A program made the translations under genes and the position numbers. This document shows positions 304 through 63,176 of a DNA stretch of 64,000 nucleotides, piece after piece. Positions within the stretch are counted from its first letter, which is position 1, and each line of letters begins with the position of its first letter. The stretch covers positions 33,130 to 97,129 of the forward strand of contig UQNH01000001.1 in NCBI GenBank assembly GCA_900542365.1, in the 5' to 3' direction. The notes below the pieces were generated by a model. The model searched no databases. It was not told where the DNA came from and saw nothing but the letters and a program-made list of their open reading frames with translations. This DNA is from an uncultured Collinsella sp. (lineage in GTDB: Bacteria > Actinomycetota > Coriobacteriia > Coriobacteriales > Coriobacteriaceae).

Positions 304-963
304 GTGTCCGCATTTCCGTTCGACGCCGTTATCTTTGACATGGACGGTGTCATTGTCGATACCGAGTATTACTATCTGGGCGAGACTGCCGCGTTTGCCA
401 AGGAGCTTGGGTTGAACCTGACCCAAGAGGAGTTGAACGGGCAGGTCGGTACCTCGCATCAGTTCTTTCTCCACATGCTGGTCGATTGGTTTGAGCGTGC
501 CGGTAAGGGACATTTTACTGGCGAGGAGGCGTTGGCCCGTTGGGATGAGTGGGCGCATAAACGTCCGCGCGACTATCAGACTTTGATTAACCCAGGCGCC
601 GTGGATACGATTCGAGAGCTGCCGCGCCGCGGCGTTCGCGTGGCGCTTGCTAGCTCGTCGCCCATGGATAGCATCGAGGAAGTACTCAATGCGTGCGGGC
701 TGTCGGATGCCTTTGAGTATGTGGTGAGTGGCGAGCAGTTTAAGGAGAGCAAGCCCGAGCCCGACATCTACCTGCATGCGCTTGACCTACTGGGGCTGCC
801 CGCGAATCGCTGCTGCTGCGTTGAGGATTCGGTGCCTGGCATCACTGCCGGCAAGCGCGCCGGTCTGACAGTTATTGCCAAGCGCGAGGAGCGCTTTGGC
901 TTTAGCCAAGATGCCGCGGACAAGATTATCGACCAGCTGCCGGAGCTGCTCACGCTTTCTTAG
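304..963 (+). CDS. HAD-IA hydrolase (beta-phosphoglucomutase/phosphatase-like)
   Basis: DxDG motif in AVIFDMDGVIVDTE. GTG-304 is preceded by AGGGAGGG at 292-299. C-terminal motif VEDSVPGITAGKRAG. Confidence 0.8.
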   Translation: MSAFPFDAVIFDMDGVIVDTEYYYLGETAAFAKELGLNLTQEELNGQVGTSHQFFLHMLVDWFERAGKGHFTGEEALARWDEWAHKRPRDYQTLINPGAVDTIRELPRRGVRVALASSSPMDSIEEVLNACGLSDAFEYVVSGEQFKESKPEPDIYLHALDLLGLPANRCCCVEDSVPGITAGKRAGLTVIAKREERFGFSQDAADKIIDQLPELLTLS

Positions 964-1113
964 GAGCGCGGTAGTTGCGCGTTTTTCGGGTCTGATGAGT
1001 AAATAGCCAACATTTTGGTGCGACACCTAGCATACTTTAAGCTAATGCGGGCTTAAGGGCTTGTTGAATGCCTTTAAGCCCGTTTTAGAATTAATTGTGC
1101 TGGGAGAGGGTAT

Positions 1114-1857
1114 ATGCCACCGACTGAAGGGCCGACTGACGGTAAAGCAGCGATACCGCTGTACCAACAGGTCATTGATATCATTAAAAACGAAATCAAC
1201 TCCGGCGCCTACAAGGCAGGCGCGCGGATACCCAACGAATTCGAATTGGCTGAGAGCTATAAAGTTGGCCGCGTTACCGTGCGACGCGCTATTGAGGAGC
1301 TCGTCCAGCAGGGCTATCTAACGAAGCGACAGGGGAAAGGCACGTTTGTCAATGCCCCCAAGCTCAAGCGCAAGATTCGCCAGAAGGATGACGTTCAGAG
1401 TTTTTCGGACGCATGCCGCGTTAACGGAATGGAACCGGGGGCGTGTGTCATTTCGAGAAAGATACTGCCGGCGGATTCCACCGAAGCACAGTTCTTTGGT
1501 GTTCCCGTTGGAACTGACTTGATTTGCGTTGAGCGCGTGCGCACTGCCGATGGCGTCCCTGTCATGCTTGAGAACAACATATATGTTTACGAGGACAACG
1601 CCTATCTATCAACGGCACCTCTATCTAACCAATCCATTTTTGAGTTCGTGCGCAACCGGACGGGCCGCACGCCCGCGTTTACCGACCCGTGCACGCTCGA
1701 GATCGCCTGCGCGTCGCCCGAGGTCGCTCGACTGTTGGCAGTTCCCGTTGGCGAACCCTTGTTTTATATGGAAGCCTTCTTTTTCGATGAGCAGCGGCGG
1801 CCGTTTATCATCGGTCGTCAGCGAATCGTTGGGTCTCGCTACGTTTTTGACATCTAG
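1114..1857 (+). CDS. GntR/HutC-family transcriptional regulator (FrlR-like, UTRA effector domain)
   Basis: N-terminal wHTH IPLYQQVIDIIKNEINSGAYKAGARIPNEFELAESYKVGRVTVRRAIEELVQQGYL. RBS GGAGAGGG. Lies upstream of the frl-like operon. Confidence 0.85.
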   Translation: MPPTEGPTDGKAAIPLYQQVIDIIKNEINSGAYKAGARIPNEFELAESYKVGRVTVRRAIEELVQQGYLTKRQGKGTFVNAPKLKRKIRQKDDVQSFSDACRVNGMEPGACVISRKILPADSTEAQFFGVPVGTDLICVERVRTADGVPVMLENNIYVYEDNAYLSTAPLSNQSIFEFVRNRTGRTPAFTDPCTLEIACASPEVARLLAVPVGEPLFYMEAFFFDEQRRPFIIGRQRIVGSRYVFDI

Positions 1858-1869
1858 GACATTGCGAAT

Positions 1870-1905
1870 GGAAGCGCCCGGTGGATCATCTCACCGGGCG
1901 TTTCC
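1870..1905 (+). terminator. Hairpin after the GntR gene (possible terminator)
   Basis: 14-bp stem GGAAGCGCCCGGTG / CACCGGGCGTTTCC with one G-U pair and an 8-nt loop. The T-tract is weak. Confidence 0.45.
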
Positions 1906-1996
1906 ATACCGTTCACGGCGCAAACGCAACCGTTCAACCGCGTTGCGGCAATCAGTTTGAAATTATCTTGATGAAGGAAAAAGCTGCTGGTAATCT

Positions 1997-3548: not shown

Positions 3549-5132
3549 ATGTCTGATCGTTTGACGGTCCTGACGTCTAAGAGCGTCTTTACCGGTACGG
3601 GGGACCTGCCGTTTGAAGGTTTCGTAGCGGTCCGTGGCAATCGAATTGAGGCTGTTGGCACCAAGTGTGAGGTAGCTTCGTATTTGACCCAAGCGGACGA
3701 GGTAGTTGACCTGGGCGACCGCACCGTCATGCCTGGCCTGATCGATGTGCATACCTTCTATACGGGCTGGGCGCTGCGGACGTTGGGGTCTGATCTATCC
3801 GGCGTCGCCGATGCCAAAGAGGCCGTGTCGCTCTTGCGTGCATGGAAAGATGATCATCCGGATTGTGCGGCGGCTTTTGGCCACAACATGCCCGAAACGT
3901 TGGCATCGGATGCCGAGAACGCAAATACGGCAGCTGTGTTTGACGATTGTTTTGGCGATATCCCTGTCGTCTGCTTTACACCGGGTGCGGAGACCTGCGT
4001 TCTCAATGCTGCCGCCAGTGCGCGATACGGCTTTACACCCCAGGCGTGCTATGCCGAGAAGATCTGGCGCATGATGAGCGATTTCCTCGCGCTACCCGAG
4101 GTGCGCGCCGGGTATTCGGACTACATGAGCATGCTTAACGAGCGCGGCGTTACCGCCATCAAGGAGATGGCGTTTGATGACTACTACGGCTTTGCCGACG
4201 AAATGGCTCGCCGTGAGGAATCTGGTGAGCTGACGGTTCGCGTCTCTATGATGTCGCAGCCGGTGGGTGCCGGTGCAAATTTGGCATATGCCCGCGAGGC
4301 GCGAGAGCGCTTCCGGGGACCGTTCGTTCGTTTTTCTGGCTTCAACCGTATGACCGATCGCGGCGTATGGGCGGGGCTTGCCGAGATGATTGACCCCTAT
4401 GAGGACACGGCCGATGCGGGAGCTGCCGGCAAGACGGTTGTCGAAGAGCCCGAGTGGGATCTGATTGAGAACGAGCTGCGTGCAATTGATGCTGACGGCT
4501 TCCGATATTCCTTGCATTGCCAGGGCGATGGCGCCGTTCGCCGCACCGTGGCGCTCTATGCCTCGCTGCCTCGAGACGAGCATGGACGGATGCTTCGCCG
4601 CCATGCGATTACCGATCTCGAGAACTCTGACCCGACCGATCTTGTCGAGTTTGGCAAGTTAGGCGGAATTTGCGAGGTCTATCCGCAGATTCTGACGCTG
4701 GACCGGCGCGAGGATTGCCTGTCGATGATGCGTCGACAAATTGGCGAGACGCGACTTTTGCACAGCTGGAATCGCCGCGGCATGGAAGATTCCGGATGCA
4801 CAGTGTGCTGTGGAACGGATTTGCCACTGCTGATTCCGAGCCTGGGCGAGTCAATCTACAGCGCGTGCGGCGGATTCTTCGCCGACGGACTGCCCGTGAA
4901 TGAGGTCAACACGCTGACGCTTGTCGAGCTCTTGCGCGCTTGGACTGCCGGGGGCGCGTACGATCTGATGCGCGAAGACGAGCTGGGTACGCTTGAGGTT
5001 GGCAAGCTTGCCGATATCTGCGTGCTCAATCGGGATGTGTTCGACCTCGATTATCGCGACGCACGCGATCTTGCGGTTGATATGACGATGTCGGACGGAC
5101 AAATCGTGTTCGATCGAAATAAGGAGGCATAA
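3549..5132 (+). CDS. Amidohydrolase-3 family metal-dependent hydrolase
   Basis: VMPGLIDVHTF metal-binding start motif; about 527 aa. RBS AGGTGG 5 nt upstream of ATG-3549. Confidence 0.7.
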   Translation: MSDRLTVLTSKSVFTGTGDLPFEGFVAVRGNRIEAVGTKCEVASYLTQADEVVDLGDRTVMPGLIDVHTFYTGWALRTLGSDLSGVADAKEAVSLLRAWKDDHPDCAAAFGHNMPETLASDAENANTAAVFDDCFGDIPVVCFTPGAETCVLNAAASARYGFTPQACYAEKIWRMMSDFLALPEVRAGYSDYMSMLNERGVTAIKEMAFDDYYGFADEMARREESGELTVRVSMMSQPVGAGANLAYAREARERFRGPFVRFSGFNRMTDRGVWAGLAEMIDPYEDTADAGAAGKTVVEEPEWDLIENELRAIDADGFRYSLHCQGDGAVRRTVALYASLPRDEHGRMLRRHAITDLENSDPTDLVEFGKLGGICEVYPQILTLDRREDCLSMMRRQIGETRLLHSWNRRGMEDSGCTVCCGTDLPLLIPSLGESIYSACGGFFADGLPVNEVNTLTLVELLRAWTAGGAYDLMREDELGTLEVGKLADICVLNRDVFDLDYRDARDLAVDMTMSDGQIVFDRNKEA

Positions 5133-5133
5133 G

Positions 5134-5985
5134 ATGTCTGAATCCAAACCGACGCTGCGCCGCGAACAGATTGCGGGCATGAATATCCACTACATCATGT
5201 GGTCGCTCGATTACTTCCTTGATGTGCAGCAGCGTTTGGGCTTTGAGTCCATTGAGCTGTGGTGTGCGGAGCCGCATGTGACGCTCGACCACACGGGCTA
5301 CTTTGAGGCTGAGGTCCTGGCGAAAAAGGCTGCAGACCGTGGGCTTAGGTATCGTACTCTGTGCCCCGAGAATGTTGTCTATCCTTGGCAGTACTGCGCA
5401 CGCAAACCGCTGCATGAACAGCGCAGCCTGGCGTACTTTAAGCACGGCATTGAGCTTGCCGAGGTACTTGGGTGCGACCGTATGTCCGTCAACTCGGGCT
5501 GGGGCGACTGGGACGAGGACCGCGAGGAAGCCTGGAAGCGCAGCCGCGAGCACTTGTCCATTCTGGCGGAGTATGCCGGTGAGCACGGTCTGGTGCTTAC
5601 GATGGAAAGCCTGCGTCCCGAGGAGAGCAACCTTGTAACGACGGTTTCCGATGCGAAGCGCATGATTGACGAGGTCGCGAGCCCGTACTTACAGCCCATG
5701 GTTGATACAACCGCGATGGGCGTTGCGGGCGAGACGCTCGAGGACTGGTTTGCCGCCTTTGGTGATGGGGCAATTCACGAGATGCACTTTATCGACGGTG
5801 ACCCGTATGGCCATCTGGTGTGGGGCGATGGCAAGCACGATATGGACGCCTTCGTCGCCACGCTTAATGCCCATGGTTTCGATGGCATGCTGGGCCAGGA
5901 AATCACGGACGGGCGTTACTACGATGACCCGGCGGCGGCAGATGCCAAGAACATGGCCGCATTCGAGAAATATCTGATTGACTAA
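5134..5985 (+). CDS. Xylose-isomerase-like TIM-barrel sugar isomerase/epimerase (FrlC-like)
   Basis: 283 aa, RBS AAGGAGG, placed between an amidohydrolase and an FrlB-like SIS gene. E. coli FrlC belongs to the same fold family. Confidence 0.65.
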   Translation: MSESKPTLRREQIAGMNIHYIMWSLDYFLDVQQRLGFESIELWCAEPHVTLDHTGYFEAEVLAKKAADRGLRYRTLCPENVVYPWQYCARKPLHEQRSLAYFKHGIELAEVLGCDRMSVNSGWGDWDEDREEAWKRSREHLSILAEYAGEHGLVLTMESLRPEESNLVTTVSDAKRMIDEVASPYLQPMVDTTAMGVAGETLEDWFAAFGDGAIHEMHFIDGDPYGHLVWGDGKHDMDAFVATLNAHGFDGMLGQEITDGRYYDDPAAADAKNMAAFEKYLID

Positions 5986-6047
5986 AACAACTATCGGCCA
6001 CGCAGCCAACGTCATTGATTGCGGACCAAACAAGAAAGGAACTGGAT

Positions 6048-7016
6048 ATGAACGCACACGATCTGATCAAAGAGGCAATTGCCGAGAAGGGCAAGTTCGA
6101 CAGCGTCTACTGGATTGCTTGCGGTGGCTCCATGATCGATTTGATCCCGGCTCATGAGCTTCTGCAGCGCGAGGCAACCACCTTCACTTCGTATATCTAT
6201 ACGGCTCGCGAGTTTGATATCATGCGCCCGCGCCGCTTGGGTGAGAAATCCCTAGTCATTGCTTGCAGCCACAGTGGCAACACCCCCGAGGTCGTCGAGG
6301 GCTGCGAGATTGCCCTTGCTGCCGGCGCTACGGTGATCGCCCAGACCGACAACGCTGGATCCAAGATTGACTCCGGCAAGTGGACCACGTGGGTCTACCC
6401 CTGGGGCGAGGGCGTGCCGCAGGCCGAGGTCCCCGCTGGCATTTCGCTGTCGCTTGCGGCCGAGCTGCTCGATCAGCAGGAGGGTTACGCCGATCTTGCC
6501 GATATGTATGCCGGTATCGCCGAGATGGATAAGATTCTTCCCCCGGCACGTGAGAAGGTAAATGCCGAGCTAGGTGATCGTTTTGCCAAGCTTTGCCAGG
6601 AGCACGAGTTCTTCTACATTCTGGGCAGCGGTCCCAACTTTAGCCAGACCTACGGTTTCGCTATCTGCTCTCTTATGGAGATGCAGTGGCAGCACTGCAG
6701 CTACATCCACTCTGCCGAGTACTTCCACGGCCCCTTCGAGGCTACTCAGGATGGCGTTTTTTACTTCCTGCAGATGGGCTCCAGCGAGTGCCGTGCTATG
6801 GACGAGCGCGCCCTTGCGTTCCTTAAGACGCATACCGATACGCTGATGGTGCTCGATGCCAAGGAGTACGGTATGGAAGCCGTGCCGGCGAGTGTCCGTG
6901 CCTATCTGGACCCGGTGCTGTTCTACGCCATGAACTGCGAGCTGCGTGCTGCACGCGGCAAGGTGTTTGATCACGATCCCGATTTCCGTCGCTATATGGG
7001 TGTTGTCGAGTACTAG
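6048..7016 (+). CDS. SIS-domain protein, fructosamine-6-phosphate deglycase-like (FrlB-like)
   Basis: VYWIACGGSMIDL and LVIACSHSGNTPE are SIS signatures. About 322 aa with two SIS halves. RBS AAAGGA. Confidence 0.7.
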   Translation: MNAHDLIKEAIAEKGKFDSVYWIACGGSMIDLIPAHELLQREATTFTSYIYTAREFDIMRPRRLGEKSLVIACSHSGNTPEVVEGCEIALAAGATVIAQTDNAGSKIDSGKWTTWVYPWGEGVPQAEVPAGISLSLAAELLDQQEGYADLADMYAGIAEMDKILPPAREKVNAELGDRFAKLCQEHEFFYILGSGPNFSQTYGFAICSLMEMQWQHCSYIHSAEYFHGPFEATQDGVFYFLQMGSSECRAMDERALAFLKTHTDTLMVLDAKEYGMEAVPASVRAYLDPVLFYAMNCELRAARGKVFDHDPDFRRYMGVVEY

Positions 7017-7030
7017 AAGGGGCAAAGGCC

Positions 7031-7894
7031 ATGGCATTTAACGTTAACGCGCTCGGATTTGGCGACAACGTCGTCGATCGCTACGAGCATATCCACACCA
7101 TGTATCCCGGCGGCAATGCGGTGAACTTCGCCGTTTATGCCAAGAAATGCGGTGCCGCACGCTCTGCATACATGGGCATTTTTGGCAATGACGCCGCTGC
7201 CGAGCATGTCATTGCAAGCCTCGAGGATGAGGGTATCGAGCTTGACAAGTGCGAGCAGATGATTGGCGAGAACGGAGCGGCTCGCGTGACCGTCGTTGAC
7301 GGTGACCGTGTCTTCCTCGGCTCCAACGAGGGCGGTATCCGTGGCGATGCGCGCTATGTTCTCGATCGCTTTGACCTTTCGTACATGAAGCAGTTCGATG
7401 TGGTTCATTCGGGCAACTATTGCTTCACCGAGCGCGAGCTGCCCAAGTTGAAGGCTGCGGGCGTCACGGTCTCTTTTGACTTTTCGGACGACTCCACCGA
7501 CGAGTACTACGAGCAGATTGCGCCCTATGTCGATTTTGCTTTCTTTAGTGCGGCGGATGCCGCGAGTGAGGACGAGATTCGCGAGCGTCTGGCATGGGTG
7601 AAGGGTCTGGGTCCGCGTTTTGTGTCGGCTACGGCGGGCGCCGAGGGCTGCATCGCTTACGACGGCGAGCGTTATTACCGCCAGCTGGCTAAACCGGTAA
7701 CGGACATGAAGGACACCATGGGGGCGGGCGACTCGTTCCTCACCTCGTTTTTGATGTGCTATCTCGATTCCGCCAAGCGTGGTGAGGGCGGCGCCGAGGC
7801 CATCGAGCGCGCGCTCGACTTTGCTGCCGGGTTTGCCTCGACCGTGTGCGGCATGGAAGGTTCTTGGGGCCACGGAGCACCAATCGTCGAATAG
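7031..7894 (+). CDS. frlD: PfkB-family fructoselysine/fructosamine 6-kinase
   Basis: GDNVVDRY...GGNAVNFAVY and DTMGAGDSFLTSFL closely parallel E. coli FrlD motifs (GDNCVDIY...GGNAVNVAVY, DTMGAGDSFIAGFL; recalled from memory). Confidence 0.7.
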   Translation: MAFNVNALGFGDNVVDRYEHIHTMYPGGNAVNFAVYAKKCGAARSAYMGIFGNDAAAEHVIASLEDEGIELDKCEQMIGENGAARVTVVDGDRVFLGSNEGGIRGDARYVLDRFDLSYMKQFDVVHSGNYCFTERELPKLKAAGVTVSFDFSDDSTDEYYEQIAPYVDFAFFSAADAASEDEIRERLAWVKGLGPRFVSATAGAEGCIAYDGERYYRQLAKPVTDMKDTMGAGDSFLTSFLMCYLDSAKRGEGGAEAIERALDFAAGFASTVCGMEGSWGHGAPIVE

Positions 7895-8015
7895 CTTAAG
7901 AAAGCGTACGGCGGTCTGGCTATGAGGCCTTGGACAGCCGATGCAAAACAATAAGCGAAACGCGAAAAGGGGGCTCGCCATGTGGTGGGTCCCCTTTTGA
8001 ACATTGGAGAAGACC

Positions 8016-8816
8016 ATGGGTATTAAAGCGTGTGCGGCTGGTTTTTGCTGTGCGGACGTCTATCAAAACATCGGCGTGTTCTATCCGACTGGTAATGGCA
8101 TTGACTGGGGTATCCATCTTGCACGATTGGGCGTTTCGGTATCCGCCGTGTCGGTTGTCGGCAAGGACGAGTACGGAGACAAGATGAGAGAGGCGCTGGC
8201 CGCCGAGGGGTTTGATATCTCTCATCTGCGGGTGGAGGATGGCGACACCTCGGTGATGCTCATGGCATTGAAAGACGGCGTCGATCGCGTGCATCTCGAG
8301 GCAATCGATGGCGTAATGGAGACATATCGTCCGAATGAAGATGACCGGGCGTTTATCCTAGAGCATGACATCATTCATACCGACCTGTTTGGCAATTGTT
8401 TGGACCTCCTGCCCGAGTGGCATAATGCGGGCAAGACGGTGGTTATGGACTTCTCGGTGTTCAGCCAAGATCCCGAATATGCCTGCGAGAATCATTTTCC
8501 CTACGTTGACTACGCATTTATGTCGTTTGAAGATGACACTCCGGAGCTGCGGGACTGGGTACGTCACGCGCAGGAATTGGGGCCGCGCGTTGCGGTTGCC
8601 ACGCTTGGCGAGAAGGGAAGCATTGCCTATGACGGTGAGCGCTTCTATGAGTGCGGGATCGTGCCGGCGGAGAAGGTCGTTAATACCGTGGGTGCCGGCG
8701 ACTCGTATATCGCCGGGTTTACCAAGGGCGTGATCGATGGCCTTGATATTCCGGCGTGTATGAAGGCGGGCGCTGAGCTGTCGTCCCGAGTGATTGGTTC
8801 GTTTGAGCCGTACTAG
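8016..8816 (+). CDS. Second, divergent PfkB-family sugar/fructosamine kinase
   Basis: C-terminal NTVGAGDSYIAGF PfkB signature. Same overall layout as the upstream kinase, but the N-terminal motif has diverged (CCADVY...TGNGIDWGIHL). Confidence 0.65.
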   Translation: MGIKACAAGFCCADVYQNIGVFYPTGNGIDWGIHLARLGVSVSAVSVVGKDEYGDKMREALAAEGFDISHLRVEDGDTSVMLMALKDGVDRVHLEAIDGVMETYRPNEDDRAFILEHDIIHTDLFGNCLDLLPEWHNAGKTVVMDFSVFSQDPEYACENHFPYVDYAFMSFEDDTPELRDWVRHAQELGPRVAVATLGEKGSIAYDGERFYECGIVPAEKVVNTVGAGDSYIAGFTKGVIDGLDIPACMKAGAELSSRVIGSFEPY

Positions 8817-56378: not shown

Positions 56379-56714
56379 ATGTGTGATTGCATCTTCTGCA
56401 AAATCGCCAACCACGAGATCCCCTCGACCGTTGTCTATGAGGACGACCAGGTCATCGCCTTCGACGACCTCAATCCCCAGGCGCCGGTCCACACGCTCGT
56501 GATCCCCAAGAAGCACTACAGCGACATCGCCGACAACGTGCCGGCCGAGACCATGGGCGCCATGGCCCACGCCATCCAGGAGGTTGCCAAGGCCAAGGGC
56601 CTGGAGGACGGTTTCCGCGTCATCTCCAACAAGGGCGTCAACGCCGGCCAGACCGTCATGCACTTCCACATGCACGTCCTCGGCGGCAAAAACCTGGGCG
56701 AGAACCTGCTCTGA
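56379..56714 (+). CDS. HIT-family (histidine triad) protein
   Basis: CIFCKI... and HFHMHVLGG. Confidence 0.85.
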   Translation: MCDCIFCKIANHEIPSTVVYEDDQVIAFDDLNPQAPVHTLVIPKKHYSDIADNVPAETMGAMAHAIQEVAKAKGLEDGFRVISNKGVNAGQTVMHFHMHVLGGKNLGENLL

Positions 56715-56909
56715 AAACGGCTCACACGACGTTTTCGTCGCCGGTTGAGACCATCTTTTCTCTGCTAATGCTAACCCGGAGATGCCTGTTCAAGTGGGTG
56801 TCTCCGGGCTCGTTATTTGTTGCGAACCGGTGACAATTCGAATTCACATGAGTAGCCAGGTCGCGGCCGATCTACGCTAACGCCTTGAAATCGAGTTAAG
56901 GATTGTTTG

Positions 56910-57806
56910 ATGAATTTGTCGCAATTGGAGTACCTCGATGCCGTTGTAAGACTGGGCGGTGTTCGCCGAGCAGCTTCTGCGCTTCATGTAACGCCGCAAG
57001 CCGTCTCGGTCGCAATTAAAAAACTTGAATCCGAACTGGGCGTTAAGCTGATTGATCGCGCAGGGCGTGAGACCGCCCCCACTTCAGAGGGAAGAGAATT
57101 CGCTCTCCGTGCTCAGGACGTTTTGAACCAGATTGATGGGCTCAAGCATTTTGCCAGCCAAGATCTTCGAGGCGTTTCTCCTGATGGCCACTTTCGACTT
57201 TACGTTCCTTGTCTGCACGGTAGGGGCGAACTGTTTTCTGACGATTGCTACGATAGGTTTGTAGAGGAGCATCCTGAGATCCACCTAGACGTCTGGCATC
57301 AGCCGAGTGCGGCATGCTTTGAATCATTGATGATGGGCATTTCGGATGCCGCCGTTTCGTTTGAAGAACCTCGCGACGATAGTTTGCATTACAAAAATCT
57401 CGGAGAGAAGAGCCTTAAGGTACTTGCCTACTCCGACCATCCCTCTTTATCCCGCTCGATTCGAATCGAAGACCTCTTTGACGGCAGGGTTGCCGTTCCC
57501 ATTAACTTGGGACCTTGTTTGACTGCCCTTTCAAAGTGTCCGGAAACTCAACTTCATGATTTGAAATTCCGTGACGTGGAGTATTCGAACCTCGAGCAAT
57601 GCCGTTTTCTAAGTTCAGGAGGAAGAATACTCGCGTTTTCTGGCTCCCAGATCTGTGCAGAAAACTCATCAATCTTGGAACTCGACATTAGCGCTTCTAA
57701 AGAGTGCTACCTTCCGGTCTATTTCTGTTATAGAAAAAACGAATGGACGGAAAGGCATCGTACTGTGTTTTGGCATCTTATGAAAACTCTATGCGATATT
57801 AGATAG
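56910..57806 (+). CDS. LysR-family transcriptional regulator (first gene of the AT-rich islet)
   Basis: MNLSQLEYLDAVVRLGGVRRAASALHVTPQAVSVAIKKLESELGVKLIDR. RBS AAGGA. Confidence 0.85.
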   Translation: MNLSQLEYLDAVVRLGGVRRAASALHVTPQAVSVAIKKLESELGVKLIDRAGRETAPTSEGREFALRAQDVLNQIDGLKHFASQDLRGVSPDGHFRLYVPCLHGRGELFSDDCYDRFVEEHPEIHLDVWHQPSAACFESLMMGISDAAVSFEEPRDDSLHYKNLGEKSLKVLAYSDHPSLSRSIRIEDLFDGRVAVPINLGPCLTALSKCPETQLHDLKFRDVEYSNLEQCRFLSSGGRILAFSGSQICAENSSILELDISASKECYLPVYFCYRKNEWTERHRTVFWHLMKTLCDIR

Positions 57807-57916
57807 GTGCAGGGTAAAAATTATTTGTCGGTCTCTTCCTTCTAATTGACGGTTTTCGAGTTATTTTCCATTCAAGCGATCGCCATGTTCTGATGACAGG
57901 ATAGAAAGGATTGCGA

Positions 57917-57994
57917 ATGACTCCCCTTAACAAAACAAACACCGACGTAAGCTCTGAACGCGTTGTCTGTATGTACAACGCTTGCAAAGCTTAG
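57917..57994 (+). CDS. Candidate RiPP precursor peptide (25 aa, two Cys), absent from the ORF track
   Basis: GAAAGGA is followed by 7 nt and then ATG. Translation MTPLNKTNTDVSSERVVCMYNACKA. Lies 55 nt upstream of the first rSAM/SPASM gene and is followed by a hairpin plus T8. Confidence 0.6.
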   Translation: MTPLNKTNTDVSSERVVCMYNACKA

Positions 57995-58005
57995 CCTTGA
58001 CGCGA

Positions 58006-58037
58006 GGGGCGGCTCATTTCTGGGCCGCCTTTTTTTT
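58006..58037 (+). terminator. Hairpin plus T-tract between precursor ORF and rSAM genes (attenuator-type terminator)
   Basis: GGCGGC (58008-13) / GCCGCC (58024-29) with a 10-nt loop, followed by TTTTTTTT (58030-37). Confidence 0.6.
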
Positions 58038-58049
58038 GAAGGGGATCAA

Positions 58050-59420
58050 ATGCCATTAATTAAACTGAATGAACTCGAACTCATTAGCTTGGACGAGAAT
58101 AATTCCGTTCTTATCAATTTGATGAATGGAAACGCCGACATTGTGAATGCGGCTGTTGCGCTTGCTATTCGTTCAGGCTGTTTTGATGGGCTTGATATTG
58201 ATACGCTCGATTTACTGATCGAGCGCGGCTATGTCTTTGACTCTGAGCATGCACGTGACAAATTTGTTGAACGAATCGATAAACGGTTGGCTTGGGAGTC
58301 GACTAGGGAAATACCAAATTTCATTGTCGTCCCAACCTATTCATGCAACCTTGATTGCTACTACTGTTTTGAAAGGGCGAGTATTTCGCGTGGCATTCGC
58401 CTTAATAAAGAAATTGAATTAGATGTCGAGCGTTTTTTCTCGTTTGTGGCCAAAGTCCTTTCTGAGTTTGAGAATGGCTATGGGGATTTTGATATGTCGA
58501 AAGTGCTGGTAACAATTACGGGCGGAGAACCTCTACAAGATTTTACGTTTCGGACAATTGAAAAGCTTCTCATAGGCTGCAGAAATAGGGGCTTTAGGGT
58601 TTCGTTCGTTACGAACGCGCTTGCTGTTCCAGAGTATTTGCATCTACTCTCTGATTACGTCTCCGTTATTGATGATATGCAAATAACGTTAGATGGCGCC
58701 CAAAGGGAGCATGATTCAATTAGGGTGGCCATTGACGGTAAACCGACCTTCAATCGAATCGTCCACTCAATTGAGCTGCTAAGCTGTCTTGATCTTAACT
58801 TGCAGGTAAGAATCAACGTGACGCGACGAAATGTAGGCACGTTGACTGAAATTGGACCTCTCATTCAAAAGTTTGATCGAGTTCTATTCTATGTTTACCT
58901 TATGCAGCAAGAGGGACGTTGTCAGAGTGAGAACGTCCTTGATGAGCTTGAAGGAATTAAAGCCCTAGACAGGCTAAAGGATGAAAACGGCGACCTCGAT
59001 AACCTTCTTGTTGAGTATCACGGGAGAAAGTTGATCGAATCAATATTTAGTGGCAAGAAGTTTCATCCAAAAATTAAAACTTGCACTGCTATGTGTAATC
59101 AATTCATATACGACCAATTTGGCTATGTATATAAATGCTGGTGGGCCATGGGCAATCGGTCTCGAGCCGTGGGTTTCGATGACGATAACGGAATTGCATG
59201 GAATAAGAAGCTGCTGTCTTACTACCGGGATCGCTCTGTGCTTAAAATGGATGCCTGCCGAGTTTGCCGTTATAGATATGTTTGTGGCGGCGGATGCACT
59301 GGGAGGCTTACCCTATATGACATGAGGAAAGGCTCTGTATCATGCCCGGATTTTCATTCGATTTTGGACTATGAAGTGCATCGGCACTGCGCCTCTCGTA
59401 GCGATGAGGGGTGTTGCTGA
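58050..59420 (+). CDS. Radical SAM/SPASM-domain peptide-modifying enzyme 1
   Basis: CNLDCYYC at 58344-58367 (CX3CX2C). C-terminal SPASM motif CRVCRYRYVCGGGC (CX2CX5CX3C). About 95 aa N-terminal extension, possibly RRE. RBS GAAGGGGA. Confidence 0.8.
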   Translation: MPLIKLNELELISLDENNSVLINLMNGNADIVNAAVALAIRSGCFDGLDIDTLDLLIERGYVFDSEHARDKFVERIDKRLAWESTREIPNFIVVPTYSCNLDCYYCFERASISRGIRLNKEIELDVERFFSFVAKVLSEFENGYGDFDMSKVLVTITGGEPLQDFTFRTIEKLLIGCRNRGFRVSFVTNALAVPEYLHLLSDYVSVIDDMQITLDGAQREHDSIRVAIDGKPTFNRIVHSIELLSCLDLNLQVRINVTRRNVGTLTEIGPLIQKFDRVLFYVYLMQQEGRCQSENVLDELEGIKALDRLKDENGDLDNLLVEYHGRKLIESIFSGKKFHPKIKTCTAMCNQFIYDQFGYVYKCWWAMGNRSRAVGFDDDNGIAWNKKLLSYYRDRSVLKMDACRVCRYRYVCGGGCTGRLTLYDMRKGSVSCPDFHSILDYEVHRHCASRSDEGCC

Positions 59421-60706
59421 TGCTTGCGCAAGCGGACTTTACGACGGTTGTCGAATTTAGCAGGGTGTCGGTGTTGGCTAATTATCTGTTGGGCACCCTA
59501 GATGCTATTGATGCCGATTATATTGACGAGGATCATTCGATTTCTGTAGAGACTCTCGATAAGGCCGAATCGGCCTATCTTCAAAAACGGGGGCACCTGC
59601 AAGTCCGGGACCATGAACAGCGTGAGTTAATATGTCGTCTCTGGAGTTCCTATCTGCAAAAGCACGAAACTACTTGCTATGTCTATCTACAATTAACCCA
59701 TGAATGCAACTTGCGTTGCTCCTATTGCTTTCAAGCTTCAAATGGCTACCAGCATCGGACTATGGCGCCGGGCACCCTTCATAATATTGAATCGTGCTTA
59801 AAGAGATTGCTTAAGACATCGTGCGATCCTGCTCGGATTGTTATCGTTTTATATGGCGGAGAGCCATTACTGCCTAAAAATATGAATCTGGTTTTAGAGG
59901 CTTTAGACATATGCAAAAGACATGGCTTTCGACTTCGGGTAATCACTAATGGGACTCAACTGCCTCATTATCTAGAAATTCTGAAGCGAAGTATTGGAGT
60001 GTTGGACGGTGTTACCGTTACGCTGGACGGCGCTCGCTTTTCACATGATAAAGTTCGAAGGACGCTTGATGGGGAGGGGACATATGATCGGGTTGTCTCT
60101 TCTAGTAAAGCTGCTATGCGAAATGGGATTGACGTAACGGTTCGCCTAAATGTATCCCAAGATAATATCGATATGCTGAGACATTCCAATTGGAGGTACT
60201 CTGACTTTAAGTACGAGATTCATCGTGTTGAATATCCTCTATACGAAAAGGCCGTTTCTTTCTGGCAATTGCTAGAACTATGCTTGAATGGCTATATATC
60301 TTTGACAGAGCTTGCCGTGAATCAAGTCGGCTATTTTTACCAGATATTTGAAGAAGATCAAGCGCATTATCCTCTATTCGGTGACTGTCTATCTGGGTCG
60401 GTGCTTCTGTTTTCTCCAGAGGGGGCTGTCTATGATTGTAACGAAGCCGGTACCGATTCGGTTCCATTGGGTATGGTTGAGGATGATTCCTGTTCATATT
60501 TTGAAAGTGTTGAAAGATACCTTAGCGGCCGAGCCTTTCAGATGGAAATCCCCTGTTCAGAGTGCCCTGCCTCTCCTGTTTGCGGAGGCGCCTGTCGCGT
60601 GAGGCGCGGGGATTCCTCTTCTTATAAGAAATGCCCGTATTACTCTGATATTTCCGATATGCTAAAAAGATATATATCCTGGAAAACTGGGCTTCAGGGG
60701 GTTTAA
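59420..60706 (+). CDS. Radical SAM/SPASM-domain peptide-modifying enzyme 2 (paralogue of enzyme 1)
   Basis: CNLRCSYC at 59705-59728. SPASM motif CSECPASPVCGGAC. The ATG overlaps the upstream TGA (TGATG); GTG-59411 is an alternative start. Shares GGEPL, GFR..TN and TLDGA..HD blocks with enzyme 1. Confidence 0.8.
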   Translation: MLAQADFTTVVEFSRVSVLANYLLGTLDAIDADYIDEDHSISVETLDKAESAYLQKRGHLQVRDHEQRELICRLWSSYLQKHETTCYVYLQLTHECNLRCSYCFQASNGYQHRTMAPGTLHNIESCLKRLLKTSCDPARIVIVLYGGEPLLPKNMNLVLEALDICKRHGFRLRVITNGTQLPHYLEILKRSIGVLDGVTVTLDGARFSHDKVRRTLDGEGTYDRVVSSSKAAMRNGIDVTVRLNVSQDNIDMLRHSNWRYSDFKYEIHRVEYPLYEKAVSFWQLLELCLNGYISLTELAVNQVGYFYQIFEEDQAHYPLFGDCLSGSVLLFSPEGAVYDCNEAGTDSVPLGMVEDDSCSYFESVERYLSGRAFQMEIPCSECPASPVCGGACRVRRGDSSSYKKCPYYSDISDMLKRYISWKTGLQGV

Positions 60707-60707
60707 A

Positions 60708-61901
60708 ATGCTTAAAAGGGTCATACTGCCCTACATGCTGTTCGTGTTCCTGTCGAACTTCAGCACGATCCTCTATTTCTTGACCGTCTATCTTGAGCAC
60801 GAGGGTTTCTCGCTCACGACTATCTCAGCAATGCTGCTTGCCTACCAGATCGGCAAGTTCGTCTCAGAGGTGCCTACTGGGTATATTGCTGACCGCTATG
60901 GCCGAAAAGCGAGCGGGCTGCTGGGTGTTGCTGGTCTAATTGCATACTACCTTGCGCTGCTCTTTGTGCAATCGCCGACTGTGCTTCTGATCGCCTTTGT
61001 CGTCAAAGGCATTTCTCTTGCCTGCATCAGTGGCTCTATTGAAGCCATCTACATTGACAGTGTCCCCCAAGAAGCTTTGGTTTCCCTAAACGTTATTGAG
61101 CGATTCGTTTTCTATGCCTCCTATGCGATTTCAGCGTTCCTTGGCGGCATGATTTCGGCTGCGCAGGCTTATCGGGTTGGTCTTTCGTGCGATATCGTAG
61201 CTATGGTTTTAACGCTCGCTGTCGTTGCCCTGATTCACGAACCTCGCGACGGTTCAAAGACGATGGCGCGGGATGACCATGTGACCGTTGGGCAAATAAC
61301 TCAAGCGATTTTGTACAACCCCTGCCTAATTGAGGCGTATGTCATGGACGTTTCGCAGGCGTTTGCCTTCGTTTCACTCGAGGATTTTTTCACGCTGATG
61401 TTAAACGAGAGGGGGATGAACTCCGTTGCCGCAGGCGCGACGGTTGCGGTCCAACTCTTATGCTCTGCTGGTCTCGGGCTGGCCATTCCATCGCTGCTTA
61501 AGAGAATCGATCAACGACGCTTCGCTCGTTTAACGGGCTGCACGAGGTATTTGCTGACTGCGCTCTTTCTGCTGCCATTTATGCCGCGCTCGCTTCTACC
61601 TCTGTTGTATATTCTGCAGACTATTGCGTACGTTTTCTTTGCCCCGATTAAATATTCCATTTTCCAGAGCAATGCACCTGCGCAGTTTCGCTGTTCTCTC
61701 ATTTCGGTTCAGAGCTTGATGGTTTCGGTTGGAGCGATCTTGTTCTATGCGTTCAACGCGCTGTTTGTTTCGTCTATTGGGGTCTCTTCATCCATATTAG
61801 TGGCGCTTCTTCTGTCTGCGCTCCTTTATATTCCGGCGCTTTTCAAGCTTACGAAAGACCGCGGTGGTTCCCGTTCGAAGAATGTGTCTCTCAGGGCTTG
61901 A
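60708..61901 (+). CDS. MFS transporter
   Basis: ADRYGRK motif, about 12 TM segments. The ATG lies 1 nt after the rSAM2 stop codon. Confidence 0.8.
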   Translation: MLKRVILPYMLFVFLSNFSTILYFLTVYLEHEGFSLTTISAMLLAYQIGKFVSEVPTGYIADRYGRKASGLLGVAGLIAYYLALLFVQSPTVLLIAFVVKGISLACISGSIEAIYIDSVPQEALVSLNVIERFVFYASYAISAFLGGMISAAQAYRVGLSCDIVAMVLTLAVVALIHEPRDGSKTMARDDHVTVGQITQAILYNPCLIEAYVMDVSQAFAFVSLEDFFTLMLNERGMNSVAAGATVAVQLLCSAGLGLAIPSLLKRIDQRRFARLTGCTRYLLTALFLLPFMPRSLLPLLYILQTIAYVFFAPIKYSIFQSNAPAQFRCSLISVQSLMVSVGAILFYAFNALFVSSIGVSSSILVALLLSALLYIPALFKLTKDRGGSRSKNVSLRA

Positions 61902-61997
61902 TATATCAGCTCCCGCTTAGGACGAACGTACGTTTAGGGGTATTATTGAAGCGTATGTAACCTGGCGGCGCCACACCGCCTGTTAGTAGGGAGACAC

Positions 61998-63176
61998 ATG
62001 AACGTTCTGGTCGTCAACGCGGGATCTTCGACCCTTAAGTATCAGGTCATCGATACCAAGTCCCACAAGGTGTCCGCAAAGGGCTCCTGCGAGCGCGTCT
62101 GCTTTACCGGTGGTACCTTCACCCATGCTGCCAACGGCTCCAAGAAGGTGACCGAGAACATCGAGTTCCCCGACCACAAGGTCGCCATCGAGGTCGTCCT
62201 GAAGGACCTCGAGGCCAACGGCGTCAAGATCGAGGGCATTGGCCACCGTATCGTTCAGGGCGGTTGGTACTTTGGCGATTCCTCCCTCGTCGACGAGGAC
62301 GTCCTCGCCAAGATCCGCGAGGTCGCTCCGCTCGCCCCGCTGCACAACAACCCCGAGGCCAACGTTATCGAGTACTGCCTGGAGCAGTATCCCGACCTGC
62401 CCAACGTCACGGTCTACGATACTGCTTTCCACTTCAATATGCCCGAGGTCGCCAAGACCTACGCCCTGCCCAAGGACGTCTGCGACAAGCTGCACATCCG
62501 TAAGTACGGCGCCCACGGCACCAGCTACCGCTACATCTCCAAGAAGGTTGCCGAGATGACCAACGGCGAGGCTCGCAAGGTCGTCGTGTGCCACATCGGT
62601 TCCGGCGCTTCCCTGTGCGCCATCGAGGACGGCAAGTGCATGGACACCACCATGGGCTTGACGCCGCTCGACGGTGTCATGATGGGCACCCGCTGCGGCT
62701 CCATCGACCCGGCCACCGTGTGCTACCTGCAGCGCGAAGGCGGCTACACCTTCGACGAGGTCGACGAGATGATGAACAAGAAGTCCGGCCTTTTGGCTGT
62801 GACCGGTGGCAAGACCAACGACTGCCGCAACGTTGAGGAGCTCGCCGCTGCCGGCGACCCCGAGGCCCAGCTCGCCTTCGATATGTTCGTCTACAAGATT
62901 GCCGCCAAGGCCGCCGAGATGGCTACCTCCATGTGCGGCATGGACACCCTGGTCTTTACCGCCGGCATCGGCGAGCACGCTCCGGCCGTCCGCGCTGGCG
63001 TGGCCGATCGTCTGGCCTTTATGGGCGTCAAGATGGACCATGCCCGCAACGCTCTGCGCGGCGACGGCGCTTGGTGCCTGTCAGCCAAGGATTCCAAGGT
63101 CAAGATTTTCGTCATCCCCACGGACGAGGAGTTCATGATCGCTTCCGACGTCGAGCGCATCGTCAACGGCAAGTAA
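61998..63176 (+). CDS. ackA: Acetate kinase
   Basis: MNVLVVNAGSSTLKYQVID, GHRIVQGG, KYGAHGTSYRY. Confidence 0.9.
   Translation: MNVLVVNAGSSTLKYQVIDTKSHKVSAKGSCERVCFTGGTFTHAANGSKKVTENIEFPDHKVAIEVVLKDLEANGVKIEGIGHRIVQGGWYFGDSSLVDEDVLAKIREVAPLAPLHNNPEANVIEYCLEQYPDLPNVTVYDTAFHFNMPEVAKTYALPKDVCDKLHIRKYGAHGTSYRYISKKVAEMTNGEARKVVVCHIGSGASLCAIEDGKCMDTTMGLTPLDGVMMGTRCGSIDPATVCYLQREGGYTFDEVDEMMNKKSGLLAVTGGKTNDCRNVEELAAAGDPEAQLAFDMFVYKIAAKAAEMATSMCGMDTLVFTAGIGEHAPAVRAGVADRLAFMGVKMDHARNALRGDGAWCLSAKDSKVKIFVIPTDEEFMIASDVERIVNGK

Follow-up and report, generated by a model that had tools for sequence, protein, structure and literature searches.

A low-GC stretch of about 5 kb in a genome of the Collinsella aerofaciens group carries five plus-strand genes, which encode a LysR-family regulator, a peptide of 25 amino acids (aa), two paralogous radical S-adenosylmethionine (rSAM) enzymes with SPASM domains (here rSAM1 and rSAM2) and a transporter of the major facilitator superfamily (MFS). 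The stretch lies in a window of 64,000 nucleotides (nt), the whole of the DNA analysed, which comes from an uncultured Collinsella sp. (assembly GCA_900542365.1, contig UQNH01000001.1, positions 33,130 to 97,129 of the forward strand); L numbers denote related loci. As a whole the locus is best explained as a self-contained biosynthetic cassette for an rSAM-modified peptide of the ribosomally synthesised and post-translationally modified type (RiPP), that is a RaS-RiPP, and we put the probability of this reading at about three in four. The arrangement lies well outside what chance would give, since the complete gene order is found again in unrelated genomes. A preliminary description of this DNA, made from its letters alone, had already proposed an uncharacterised RiPP-type locus, and this proposal is supported here. 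No paper describes the family. The precursor family, the putative split of work between two enzymes and a polymorphism between producers and strains that keep only LysR and MFS are new, while the general biosynthetic logic is well known and the locus is one of many uncharacterised rSAM peptide clusters.

The precursor peptide gene and its two enzymes

The precursor gene (57917-57994, plus strand), an unannotated ORF to which the preliminary description had drawn attention, encodes the peptide MTPLNKTNTDVSSERVVCMYNACKA, with a leader MTPLNKTNTDVSSERVV and a core CMYNACKA. Its ribosome-binding site AGAAAGG (57903-57909, plus strand) is placed 7 nt before the ATG. Every copy of the gene has such a site, and nine loci from different taxa share an invariant AGG or GGAGG core at this place. 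The lack of such a peptide beside homologous rSAM genes had been named in the preliminary description as grounds for giving up the RiPP reading. In order to address this, relatives were fetched as contigs by decreasing identity to rSAM1, and each of the 14 related loci with upstream sequence proved to have a homologous short ORF immediately upstream of its rSAM1 homologue. The peptide loci reach across two identified phyla together with unassigned low-GC contigs from gut or rumen and contigs resembling the candidate phyla radiation (CPR). Collinsella alleles at the same site between the HIT gene and ackA encode MTPLNKTNADVSSERVVCMYNACKA (L091 and L092), MKPLNKTNTEVKSERTVCMYNACKA (L093) and MKSLNKTNADAKSERIVCMYNACKA (L094), and further peptides are MKSLNKNNTDVRPDRSACAYHLCK in L095, MKALNENNNTVSVANSVCLYKHCK in L097, L103 and L104, MKPLNENNANVESERIVCSYHLCK in the Pseudobutyrivibrio ruminis loci L098 and L099, MTSLNKNNVNVEGERQVCVYSRCK in L105, MKSLNKKQIKKDSKKFRCTYSLCK in L117 and MKSLNVKVVKNAGEVKCSLDNCAYCMK in L116; L096 also carries the peptide and enzymes.

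Residues M1, N5, C18 and Y20 are invariant in 12 of 12 distinct peptides, and all 12 precursors share M-x-x-[LI]-N followed by C-x-Y. The earlier statement that the peptide has no known family signature therefore has to be amended, as M-x-x-[LI]-N...C-x-Y is such a signature, though uncatalogued so far. The spacing between the first and the C-terminal second Cys varies across the family (3, 5 or 7 residues), and the core VCMYNACKA is identical in five Collinsella peptide variants (that of the window and four other alleles) whose rSAM1 proteins are 52-76% identical to that of the window, so that conservation is far higher in the peptide core than in the enzymes. The window peptide differs from that of L091 and L092 in one leader residue. 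At the codon level the comparison with L091 gives seven synonymous differences and one nonsynonymous difference (dN 0.017, dS 0.68, dN/dS about 0.02). Ratios of nonsynonymous to synonymous change are about 0.02-0.14 among the Collinsella peptide alleles, with codon differences mostly synonymous, and do not exceed about 0.06 in the more distant Collinsella pairs for which dS could be estimated. Codons for Cys, Tyr, Lys, Leu and Asn vary synonymously among the peptide genes and the ATG is invariant. The 25-aa ORF is thus a real gene under purifying selection, and it always travels with an rSAM1-type enzyme. A search of 8 million full texts found none of the peptide strings.

Both enzymes (rSAM1, 58050-59420, 456 aa; rSAM2, 59420-60706, 428 aa; plus strand) score above the cut-offs of PF04055 (50 and 67 bits respectively; cut-off 29.5) and of the SPASM model TIGR04085 (45.7 and 38.4 bits; cut-off 27). 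With Pfam, no SPASM match was obtained on the isolated termini, while the NCBIfam SPASM model did match. All cysteines of the CX3CX2C and SPASM CX2CX5CX3C motifs which the preliminary description had ascribed to the two proteins could be located: rSAM1 has CNLDCYYC (C99/C103/C106) and C403-x2-C406-x5-C412-x3-C416, and rSAM2 has CNLRCSYC (C96/C100/C103) and C379-x2-C382-x5-C388-x3-C392, with CNLDCYYC and CNLRCSYC invariant within their respective families. Conserved cysteines of the SPASM region are found at 345, 363, 403, 406, 412, 416 and 432 in rSAM1 and at 323, 340, 379, 382, 388, 392 and 405 in rSAM2, the count per family being eight for rSAM1 and seven for rSAM2. The two proteins are colinear paralogues (25% identity, E = 3e-30) and the blocks GGEPL, GFR....TN and TLDGA...HD that they were said to share are indeed common to both. 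A longer ORF with a TTG start at 57963 was tried as the true start of rSAM1 and rejected, since the homologues start at the ATG at 58050.

The NCBIfam matches of both enzymes are solely to peptide-maturase and other rSAM/SPASM models. For rSAM1 the best is CefB (124 bits against a cut-off of 600), then TIGR04463 (87 against 525) and DynA (75 against 450); for rSAM2 it is PapB (98 against 340, E = 7e-28), followed by CefB (93 against 600) and the SCIFF maturase (74 against 425). Other maturase equivalogs score far lower than their cut-offs, with RumMC at 40 against 720, StsB at 66 against 625 and CcpM at 68 against 500. A role as anaerobic sulfatase-maturating enzyme (anSME) or in cofactor biosynthesis, which the preliminary description had held up as a finding that would overturn its reading, was rejected on these scores, as the enzymes score 56 and 67 bits with the anSME model TIGR03942 (cut-off 349) and fall short by as wide a margin with the mycofactocin, PQQ-type and heme models. 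The nearest Protein Data Bank entry by sequence is CteB for both (phmmer E = 1.5e-16 for rSAM2 and 1.8e-7 for rSAM1). AlphaFold2 (AF2) models (mean confidence, pLDDT, 86.4 for rSAM1 and 84.7 for rSAM2) show N-terminal domains of three strands followed by helices, at residues 9-85 with three helices in rSAM1 and at residues 8-81 with two helices of at least 4 residues in rSAM2, with a pLDDT of about 79-96 in these domains. Foldseek placed CteB first for both models (E = 2e-16 and 3e-15), followed by TigE and SuiB for rSAM1 and by anSME and TigE for rSAM2, with ChlB also listed, and the alignments to CteB, TigE and SuiB cover the full length. Predicted topology and the full-length structural alignment to CteB suggest that the N-terminal domains may be like RiPP recognition elements (RREs). 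We conclude that both enzymes are peptide maturases, not sulfatase or cofactor enzymes, and that they are complete three-cluster-type rSAM/SPASM proteins with predicted RRE-like N-terminal domains.

The families are small. A profile search of 1.84 billion representative proteins gave four rSAM1 representatives above 600 bits and about 14 more at 380-495 bits, with the generic rSAM/SPASM continuum beginning below about 330 bits, and rSAM2 has about 15 clusters before a drop from E = 1e-48 to 1e-34; no close member of either family has an informative name. When species-representative genomes were scanned with the full-length rSAM1 alignment, the matches listed were solely distant relatives at 28% identity or less. 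A scan of viral contigs was without any match, and plasmids searched by tblastn held only generic relatives (25-30% identity).

Proposed division of labour and pathway, and probable chemistry

The order peptide, rSAM1, rSAM2, MFS is found in the Collinsella alleles, L095, L097, L098, L116 and L117. In all ten peptides of the two-enzyme type (which include that of L105, whose contig ends before rSAM2) a second Cys comes after the C-x-Y, as does a Lys placed at or beside the C-terminus, giving CxYxxCK in the window. Loci with a single enzyme differ in this respect. L106 and L107 have the order peptide (MKSINEVKEVVAEVYVCTYNAH), rSAM1, MFS; they lie on frameshift-ridden contigs in which gene content was read by tblastn, not from ORFs. 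In L118 and L119 the order is methyltransferase, peptide (MKSINTNIVSVEKISSTNASCMYHNASCMYHA, ending in ...NASCMYHNASCMYHA), rSAM1, GTPase, methyltransferase, and L011 shares the L118 gene order downstream of the enzyme, with no homologous peptide found in it. By tblastn scores the single enzyme of L106/L107, L118/L119 and L011 is the orthologue of rSAM1, not of rSAM2, and the single-enzyme peptides carry C-x-Y once or twice without the second Cys or Lys. Where gene content is readable, rSAM2 occurs only in loci whose peptides have the extra C..K. Because loci with rSAM1 only have CxY alone and two-enzyme loci add C..K, it is a well-motivated hypothesis that C-x-Y would be the target of rSAM1, and the second Cys with the near-terminal Lys that of rSAM2.

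Some related loci depart from these layouts. L102 (129-2051) has an rSAM1 homologue followed directly by MFS, with no rSAM2 between them, and its contig ends before the peptide. L095 has a third rSAM/SPASM gene (675-1961, minus strand), divergently transcribed upstream of the cassette, and an ABC transporter (an ATPase and two membrane proteins, 6274-8732) downstream of MFS. The stored protein P0025, noted together with L011, has Trp where the family has an invariant Gly, as in CGTWC, which points to an organism reading UGA as Gly for which the source database applied an incorrect genetic code in translation.

The pathway that we propose would begin with LysR controlling a promoter in the 110-nt spacer between LysR and the peptide gene. 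Precursor would be transcribed in excess over rSAM1-rSAM2-MFS, since the hairpin and T8 that follow the peptide gene would pass only some transcripts into the downstream genes. The conserved leader M-x-x-L-N-K-x-N would dock on the RRE-like domains, rSAM1 could then form a short-range cross-link within C18-x-Y20 and rSAM2 a second one joining C23 to K24 or to the C-terminus, after which a housekeeping protease would remove the leader and the MFS pump export the product. By analogy the cross-links would most likely be Cys-derived thioethers of a small-ring sactionine or ranthionine type, and the product a very small bicyclic peptide of perhaps 7-8 residues. The leaning towards thioethers comes from the nearest profile models, which are those of PapB, CefB and the SCIFF maturase, and from CteB as the nearest structure by sequence, CteB and PapB being thioether synthases. 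Rings of this size have precedent in enteropeptin, a 6-membered thiomorpholine formed by Cys and the adjacent residue, and in suisactin with its 9-membered rings (PMC12395415), while PapB joins a Cys thiol to the carbon beside a carboxylate, that of the C-terminal residue included (PMC12373016). Links between C18 and Y20 and between C23 and K24 or the C-terminus would be in line with these cases.

A comparison with characterised systems shows resemblance in parts. The CteB/SCIFF system (thermocellin; PDB 5WGG and 5WHY; TIGR03974) has the three-part build predicted here (an N-terminal RRE-type domain, an rSAM core and SPASM) and a short Cys-containing precursor encoded next to the enzyme, however CteB is only 16-19% identical to the enzymes described here and TIGR03974 falls short as given above. 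SCIFF precursors are about 45 aa long with six Cys and are served by one enzyme, as against 25 aa, two Cys and two paralogues. With PapB (freyrasin; NF047865) it is only the rSAM core of rSAM2 that aligns; linkage at a C-terminal residue is possible there and the second Cys lies 1-2 residues from the C-terminus here, but the core described here offers neither an Asp/Glu acceptor nor CxxxD/E repeats, and PapB is without a paralogous partner. The precursor core, with 7-8 residues, two Cys, no Asp or Glu and no repeated CxxxD/E, also departs from the pattern of sactipeptide and ranthipeptide precursors, in which several Cys donors have acceptors downstream or CxxxD/E is repeated. CefB, of the 'Cys-every-fifth' group (NF038107), aligns with rSAM1 over residues 11-445, and no other NCBIfam match of rSAM1 extends over the N-terminal domain as well; in the window C23 stands five residues after C18, but the spacing varies in the wider family. 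No paper on CefA/CefB was found, and 'Cys-every-fifth' is absent from 8 million full texts.

Enteropeptins and suisactin, compared by peptide features and not by enzyme homology, also have very short cores, and their adjacent and i to i+2 spans correspond to C-K and C-x-Y here (PMC12395415). Their producers are gut or animal commensals, as here, whereas their precursor motifs are unrelated and arginase and methyltransferase genes are absent from the locus. The streptide operon (StrA/StrB/StrC; SuiB, PDB 5V1Q) has a similar set of a short precursor, an rSAM/SPASM enzyme with an RRE (here a putative RRE-like domain) and a transporter without a dedicated protease, and SuiB is a strong structural match of rSAM1 (E = 7e-14). 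It differs in its Lys-Trp C-C link within KxxxW, its Rgg/SHP regulator and its single enzyme, as opposed to a LysR regulator and two enzymes, and Trp occurs in none of the 12 precursors, which thus lack KxxxW. Two paralogous rSAM/SPASM maturases in a gut Gram-positive cluster are also known from ruminococcin C (RumMC1/2) and thuricin CD (TrnC/D) (PMC8188230, PMC12093266). Those clusters have several or two-component precursors of at least 30 aa with 3-4 thioethers each, ABC transporters and peptidases, in contrast to one 25-aa precursor, an MFS pump and no peptidase, and the RumMC model is as distant as stated above.

Allelic history, likely biological role and competing explanations

The preliminary description had treated the stretch as an AT-rich islet. 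Its low GC content stands, however it is not a simple insertion but one allele of an old syntenic locus whose common allele keeps LysR and MFS. At the HIT-ackA site all eight of the megabase-scale C. aerofaciens contigs listed (L108-L115, among them CP048433.1 as L108 and CP024160.1 as L113, with the locus at 4710-6880) carry only LysR (58% identity) and MFS (61%). This reduced allele is similarly low in GC, and no peptide ORF was found in its 120-nt LysR-MFS spacer. The flanking proteins of L091 and L092 match those of the window at 97-100% identity, whereas the cassette proteins are 88-91% (LysR), 85-87% (MFS), 74-76% (rSAM1) and 73-74% (rSAM2) identical. At the same site L093, which belongs to a different Collinsella species (ackA 87%, xseA 64%), carries a cassette whose enzymes are 54% (rSAM1) and 46% (rSAM2) identical. 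In the sequence collection the identical ackA protein has entries in 26,991 blocks, and the window's rSAM1 allele in 89. The recent insertion of a mobile island was rejected on the presence of LysR and MFS at the same site and on the divergence of the cassette against near-identical flanks. Since the site is never empty and another Collinsella species has the cassette there, the stretch appears to be an old, resident, syntenic and polymorphic locus, not a recent mobile insertion. A full cassette with LysR also occurs beside a conjugation gene in an unrelated organism (L097), and the cassette is present in Lachnospiraceae; on these grounds the full form is probably ancestral and the LysR-MFS form a deletion derivative, and because relatives occur in Lachnospiraceae the locus may originally have come from a low-GC donor. 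In L097 (5653-8807) the cassette and LysR adjoin genes for an HTH_3 regulator, an LRR_5 protein and a TraG/VirD4-type coupling protein, which suggests carriage on or next to a conjugative element. L108 has an insertion sequence (Transposase_mut) between LysR and MFS.

The role of the product would most likely lie in competition between strains or species, with the pump doubling as self-protection, and this would explain why most strains keep the regulator and pump without the enzymes. An efflux pump kept without the toxin genes is a classic orphan immunity pattern. The retention of LysR and MFS would fit such a pattern; an eavesdropping listener would look alike. In the CPR-like loci that use genetic code 25 (L118 3820-8422, L119 and L011 829-5279) a GTPase of 679-684 aa directly follows the maturase and is in turn followed by a methyltransferase, and L011 and L118, at about 51% identity, share this arrangement of rSAM1 homologue, GTPase and methyltransferase. 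The best NCBIfam match of the GTPase is the tetracycline ribosomal-protection family at 539 bits (cut-off 775), as against 285-344 bits for EF-G. This weakly suggests that the CPR-like branch makes a ribosome-directed compound, and the Tet(M)-like GTPase may confer self-resistance to a ribosome-targeting peptide. A literature search joining radical SAM or RiPP with ribosomal protection protein found nothing relevant.

The evidence on the peptide also bears on whether it is the substrate at all and, if so, on what is done to it. The short ORF could be incidental and the enzymes mature another protein or a cofactor in the manner of anSME, as anSME is among the structural matches and TIGR03942 does match weakly. 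This is very improbable given that ORF, ribosome-binding site and hairpin are conserved in two identified phyla and in unassigned low-GC and CPR-like contigs, that dN/dS is well below 1, that no sulfatase or quinoprotein gene lies nearby while the sulfatase and cofactor models are far under their cut-offs, and that both AF2 models have an extra N-terminal domain of peptide-binding type which anSME lacks. A less drastic alternative accepts the peptide as substrate but replaces the thioethers by C-C or C-O cross-links on Tyr20 or Lys24, or by epimerisation, with the Cys pair serving as a disulfide or metal ligand. Tyr20 is as invariant as Cys18, the nearest relatives include SuiB (Lys-Trp C-C), DynA and TigE, the last of which is a non-thioether maturase (a cyclopropyl synthase), and Y-N-A fits the aromatic-x-x pattern of cyclophane-forming maturases. 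The auxiliary cluster of SuiB is fully ligated, and with eight SPASM-region Cys in the rSAM1 family that of rSAM1 possibly is too. On the other hand Cys and Tyr stay paired in all copies of the single-enzyme peptides, the duplicated CMYH unit included, so that Cys probably takes part in the reaction; in readable loci the second Cys occurs only where the second enzyme is present, the single-Cys peptide of L106 cannot form a disulfide, and the triceptide (cyclophane) model YhhB scores only 47 and 60 bits against a cut-off of 445 despite the Y-x-x motif in the precursor. We therefore view non-thioether chemistry as unlikely, while taking it seriously.

As to what the product is for, it may be a cell-cell signal, autoinducer-like, which LysR senses and MFS exports or re-imports, the strains with LysR and MFS only being listeners. 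Streptide, whose precursor-rSAM-transporter architecture is similar and whose enzyme SuiB is a structural match, is under quorum-sensing control; L098 and L117 have other regulators beside the cassette (an HTH protein of 606 aa and an HTH_3 protein, respectively); the enzymes are far less conserved than the core, as would fit a ligand matched to a conserved receptor; and LysR and MFS are retained without the enzymes. However LysR proteins normally bind small cytoplasmic metabolites, and neither a receptor kinase nor a sensor of Rgg/PlcR type is present in the Collinsella loci. The Tet(M)-like protection protein beside the CPR-like homologues points to an antibiotic, and a pump without toxin genes is the pattern of orphan immunity already mentioned, so that signalling is a tentative alternative to competition which we would not favour. 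The cassette might also be decaying or inactive in the window strain. Where 20 of 20 other rSAM1 family members have [EDG]GC, the window has EGRC (58917-58922, residues 290-291), with Arg at a family-invariant Cys position, R290, which could affect the auxiliary cluster, and most C. aerofaciens genomes already lack the peptide and both enzymes. Yet the five ORFs are intact and all other invariant residues are kept, a Cys stands at the next position, 291, as in alleles with CC there, the exact rSAM1 recurs in 89 blocks with full-length neighbour genes at each of the ten places listed, and the peptide is under strong purifying selection within the window's allele group, which together make decay improbable.

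Several points weigh against the reading of the locus as a RaS-RiPP cassette with a role in competition. Every curated equivalog cut-off is missed widely (for example 98 bits against 340 for PapB and 124 against 600 for CefB), and R290, with its Cys shifted to 291, sets the window's rSAM1 apart from the 20 other members. The profile searches that the preliminary description proposed bore out PF04055 and TIGR04085 in both enzymes but not PqqD, as no Pfam PqqD/RRE model matches the N-termini even at E = 10, and the RRE assignment is therefore a purely structural one. The assignment of enzymes to motifs draws on two independent types of single-enzyme peptide, the spacing differs in L116 (CAYCMK), so that a second cross-link would be without fixed register, and the cross-link chemistry is deduced wholly from distant relatives. 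Neither a protease nor a dedicated immunity gene is present at the locus, and the case for competition is circumstantial, with signalling fitting a LysR regulator equally well.

Collinsella is an abundant and strain-diverse genus of the human gut, and to our knowledge few of its products able to affect neighbouring microbes have been described. A search of 8 million full texts found no relevant paper that brings Collinsella together with radical SAM, RiPP or ranthipeptide, and two surveys of human-microbiome RiPPs do not mention the genus. In its most far-reaching form the RaS-RiPP reading would have CxY as substrate for a cross-link new to ribosomal peptides (e.g. Cys-Tyr, made by a SPASM enzyme) and a second ring at the C-terminal Cys-Lys, yielding a bicyclic ribosome-targeting antibiotic of about 7 residues, with producer and resistant non-producer alleles held as a balanced polymorphism in human gut Collinsella; this whole combination is speculative and quite unlikely. 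The locus is an attractive and very tractable target, as a 25-aa precursor, two enzymes and one pump are small enough for one plasmid, and the one-enzyme loci with CxY only and the two-enzyme loci with CxY..CK are natural controls, which makes the division of labour directly testable. If true, few constrained RiPP scaffolds would be as small as this core of 7-8 residues carrying two enzymatic cross-links, and it would be useful for peptide engineering, while the full cassette and the LysR-MFS form at one site with near-identical flanks offer a system for studying producer and non-producer coexistence in the gut.

Non-coding elements and gene neighbourhood

A GC-rich hairpin with a T8 run lies between the precursor gene and rSAM1 (58004-58037, plus strand; 13-bp stem at 58004-58033, T8 at 58030-58037), as had been seen in the preliminary description. 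A simple terminator scan missed it but folding confirmed it (-25.7 kcal/mol, z = -2.95 against shuffles), and a strong hairpin 3' of the peptide stop codon is present in nine of nine folded loci, with unrelated sequences and usually a following T-run. This hairpin is probably an attenuating partial terminator by which the proportion of precursor transcripts to enzyme transcripts would be set. A conserved non-coding block upstream of the peptide gene (57846-57883, plus strand) contains TTGAC (57846-57850) and the 12-mer TCAAGCGATCGC (57872-57883), both of which are invariant in five Collinsella alleles while the spacer around them varies. The 12-mer has a palindromic core GCGATCGC and a single exact copy within the window. 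These features make the block a candidate promoter or operator; a sigma-70 scan of the LysR-peptide spacer found no convincing promoter. A degenerate version of the 12-mer (tCCAAGattCCGA) is located upstream of the MFS gene in the reduced allele L113.

The LysR-family regulator (298 aa, 56910-57806, plus strand) was placed as in the preliminary description, with Pfam HTH_1 (70 bits) and LysR_substrate (41 bits) both over cut-off and no NCBIfam equivalog reached. All Collinsella alleles, and L097 as well, keep this gene upstream of the cassette, and its product is presumed to be the pathway regulator. The MFS transporter (397 aa, 60708-61901, plus strand; Pfam MFS_1 PF07690, 93 bits), whose gene lies 3' of the enzyme gene or genes in every full locus outside the CPR-like group, is presumed to be the exporter of the product and may have producer protection as a second role. 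The tight packing reported earlier was verified at both junctions, as rSAM1 and rSAM2 overlap at TGATG (59418-59422) and rSAM2 and MFS meet at TAA-A-ATG (60704-60710), with one base between stop codon and ATG. No peptidase, ABC/C39 exporter, integrase or meaningful flanking repeat was found at the locus, in agreement with the preliminary description.

In 300-nt windows the GC content is 0.40-0.51 across about 57400-61900, between the HIT gene and the first ackA, with intermediate values of 0.50-0.54 in the 5' half of LysR, as against 0.59-0.69 to the left of position 56650 and 0.56-0.66 between 61900 and about 63250. The left neighbour is a HIT-family gene (56379-56714), 3' of which lies a terminator-like hairpin (56775-56808, plus strand) with a 15-pair stem and a T-rich tail. 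This is likely the terminator of the xseA-xseB-HIT unit, and it forms the left edge of the low-GC locus, GC dropping from there. Exact cassette proteins are found in Collinsella isolates (WP_117799053.1, 'unclassified Collinsella'; Collinsella sp. AF18-8LB; GCA_003459895.1) and in human gut metagenomes, and the flanking acetate kinase is identical to a C. aerofaciens protein. To the right stand two tandem acetate kinase genes of 392 aa each (61998-63176 and about 63340 to the end of the window), which in the source contig are followed by pta on the opposite strand. The duplication of the acetate kinase gene is present in all Collinsella contigs examined.

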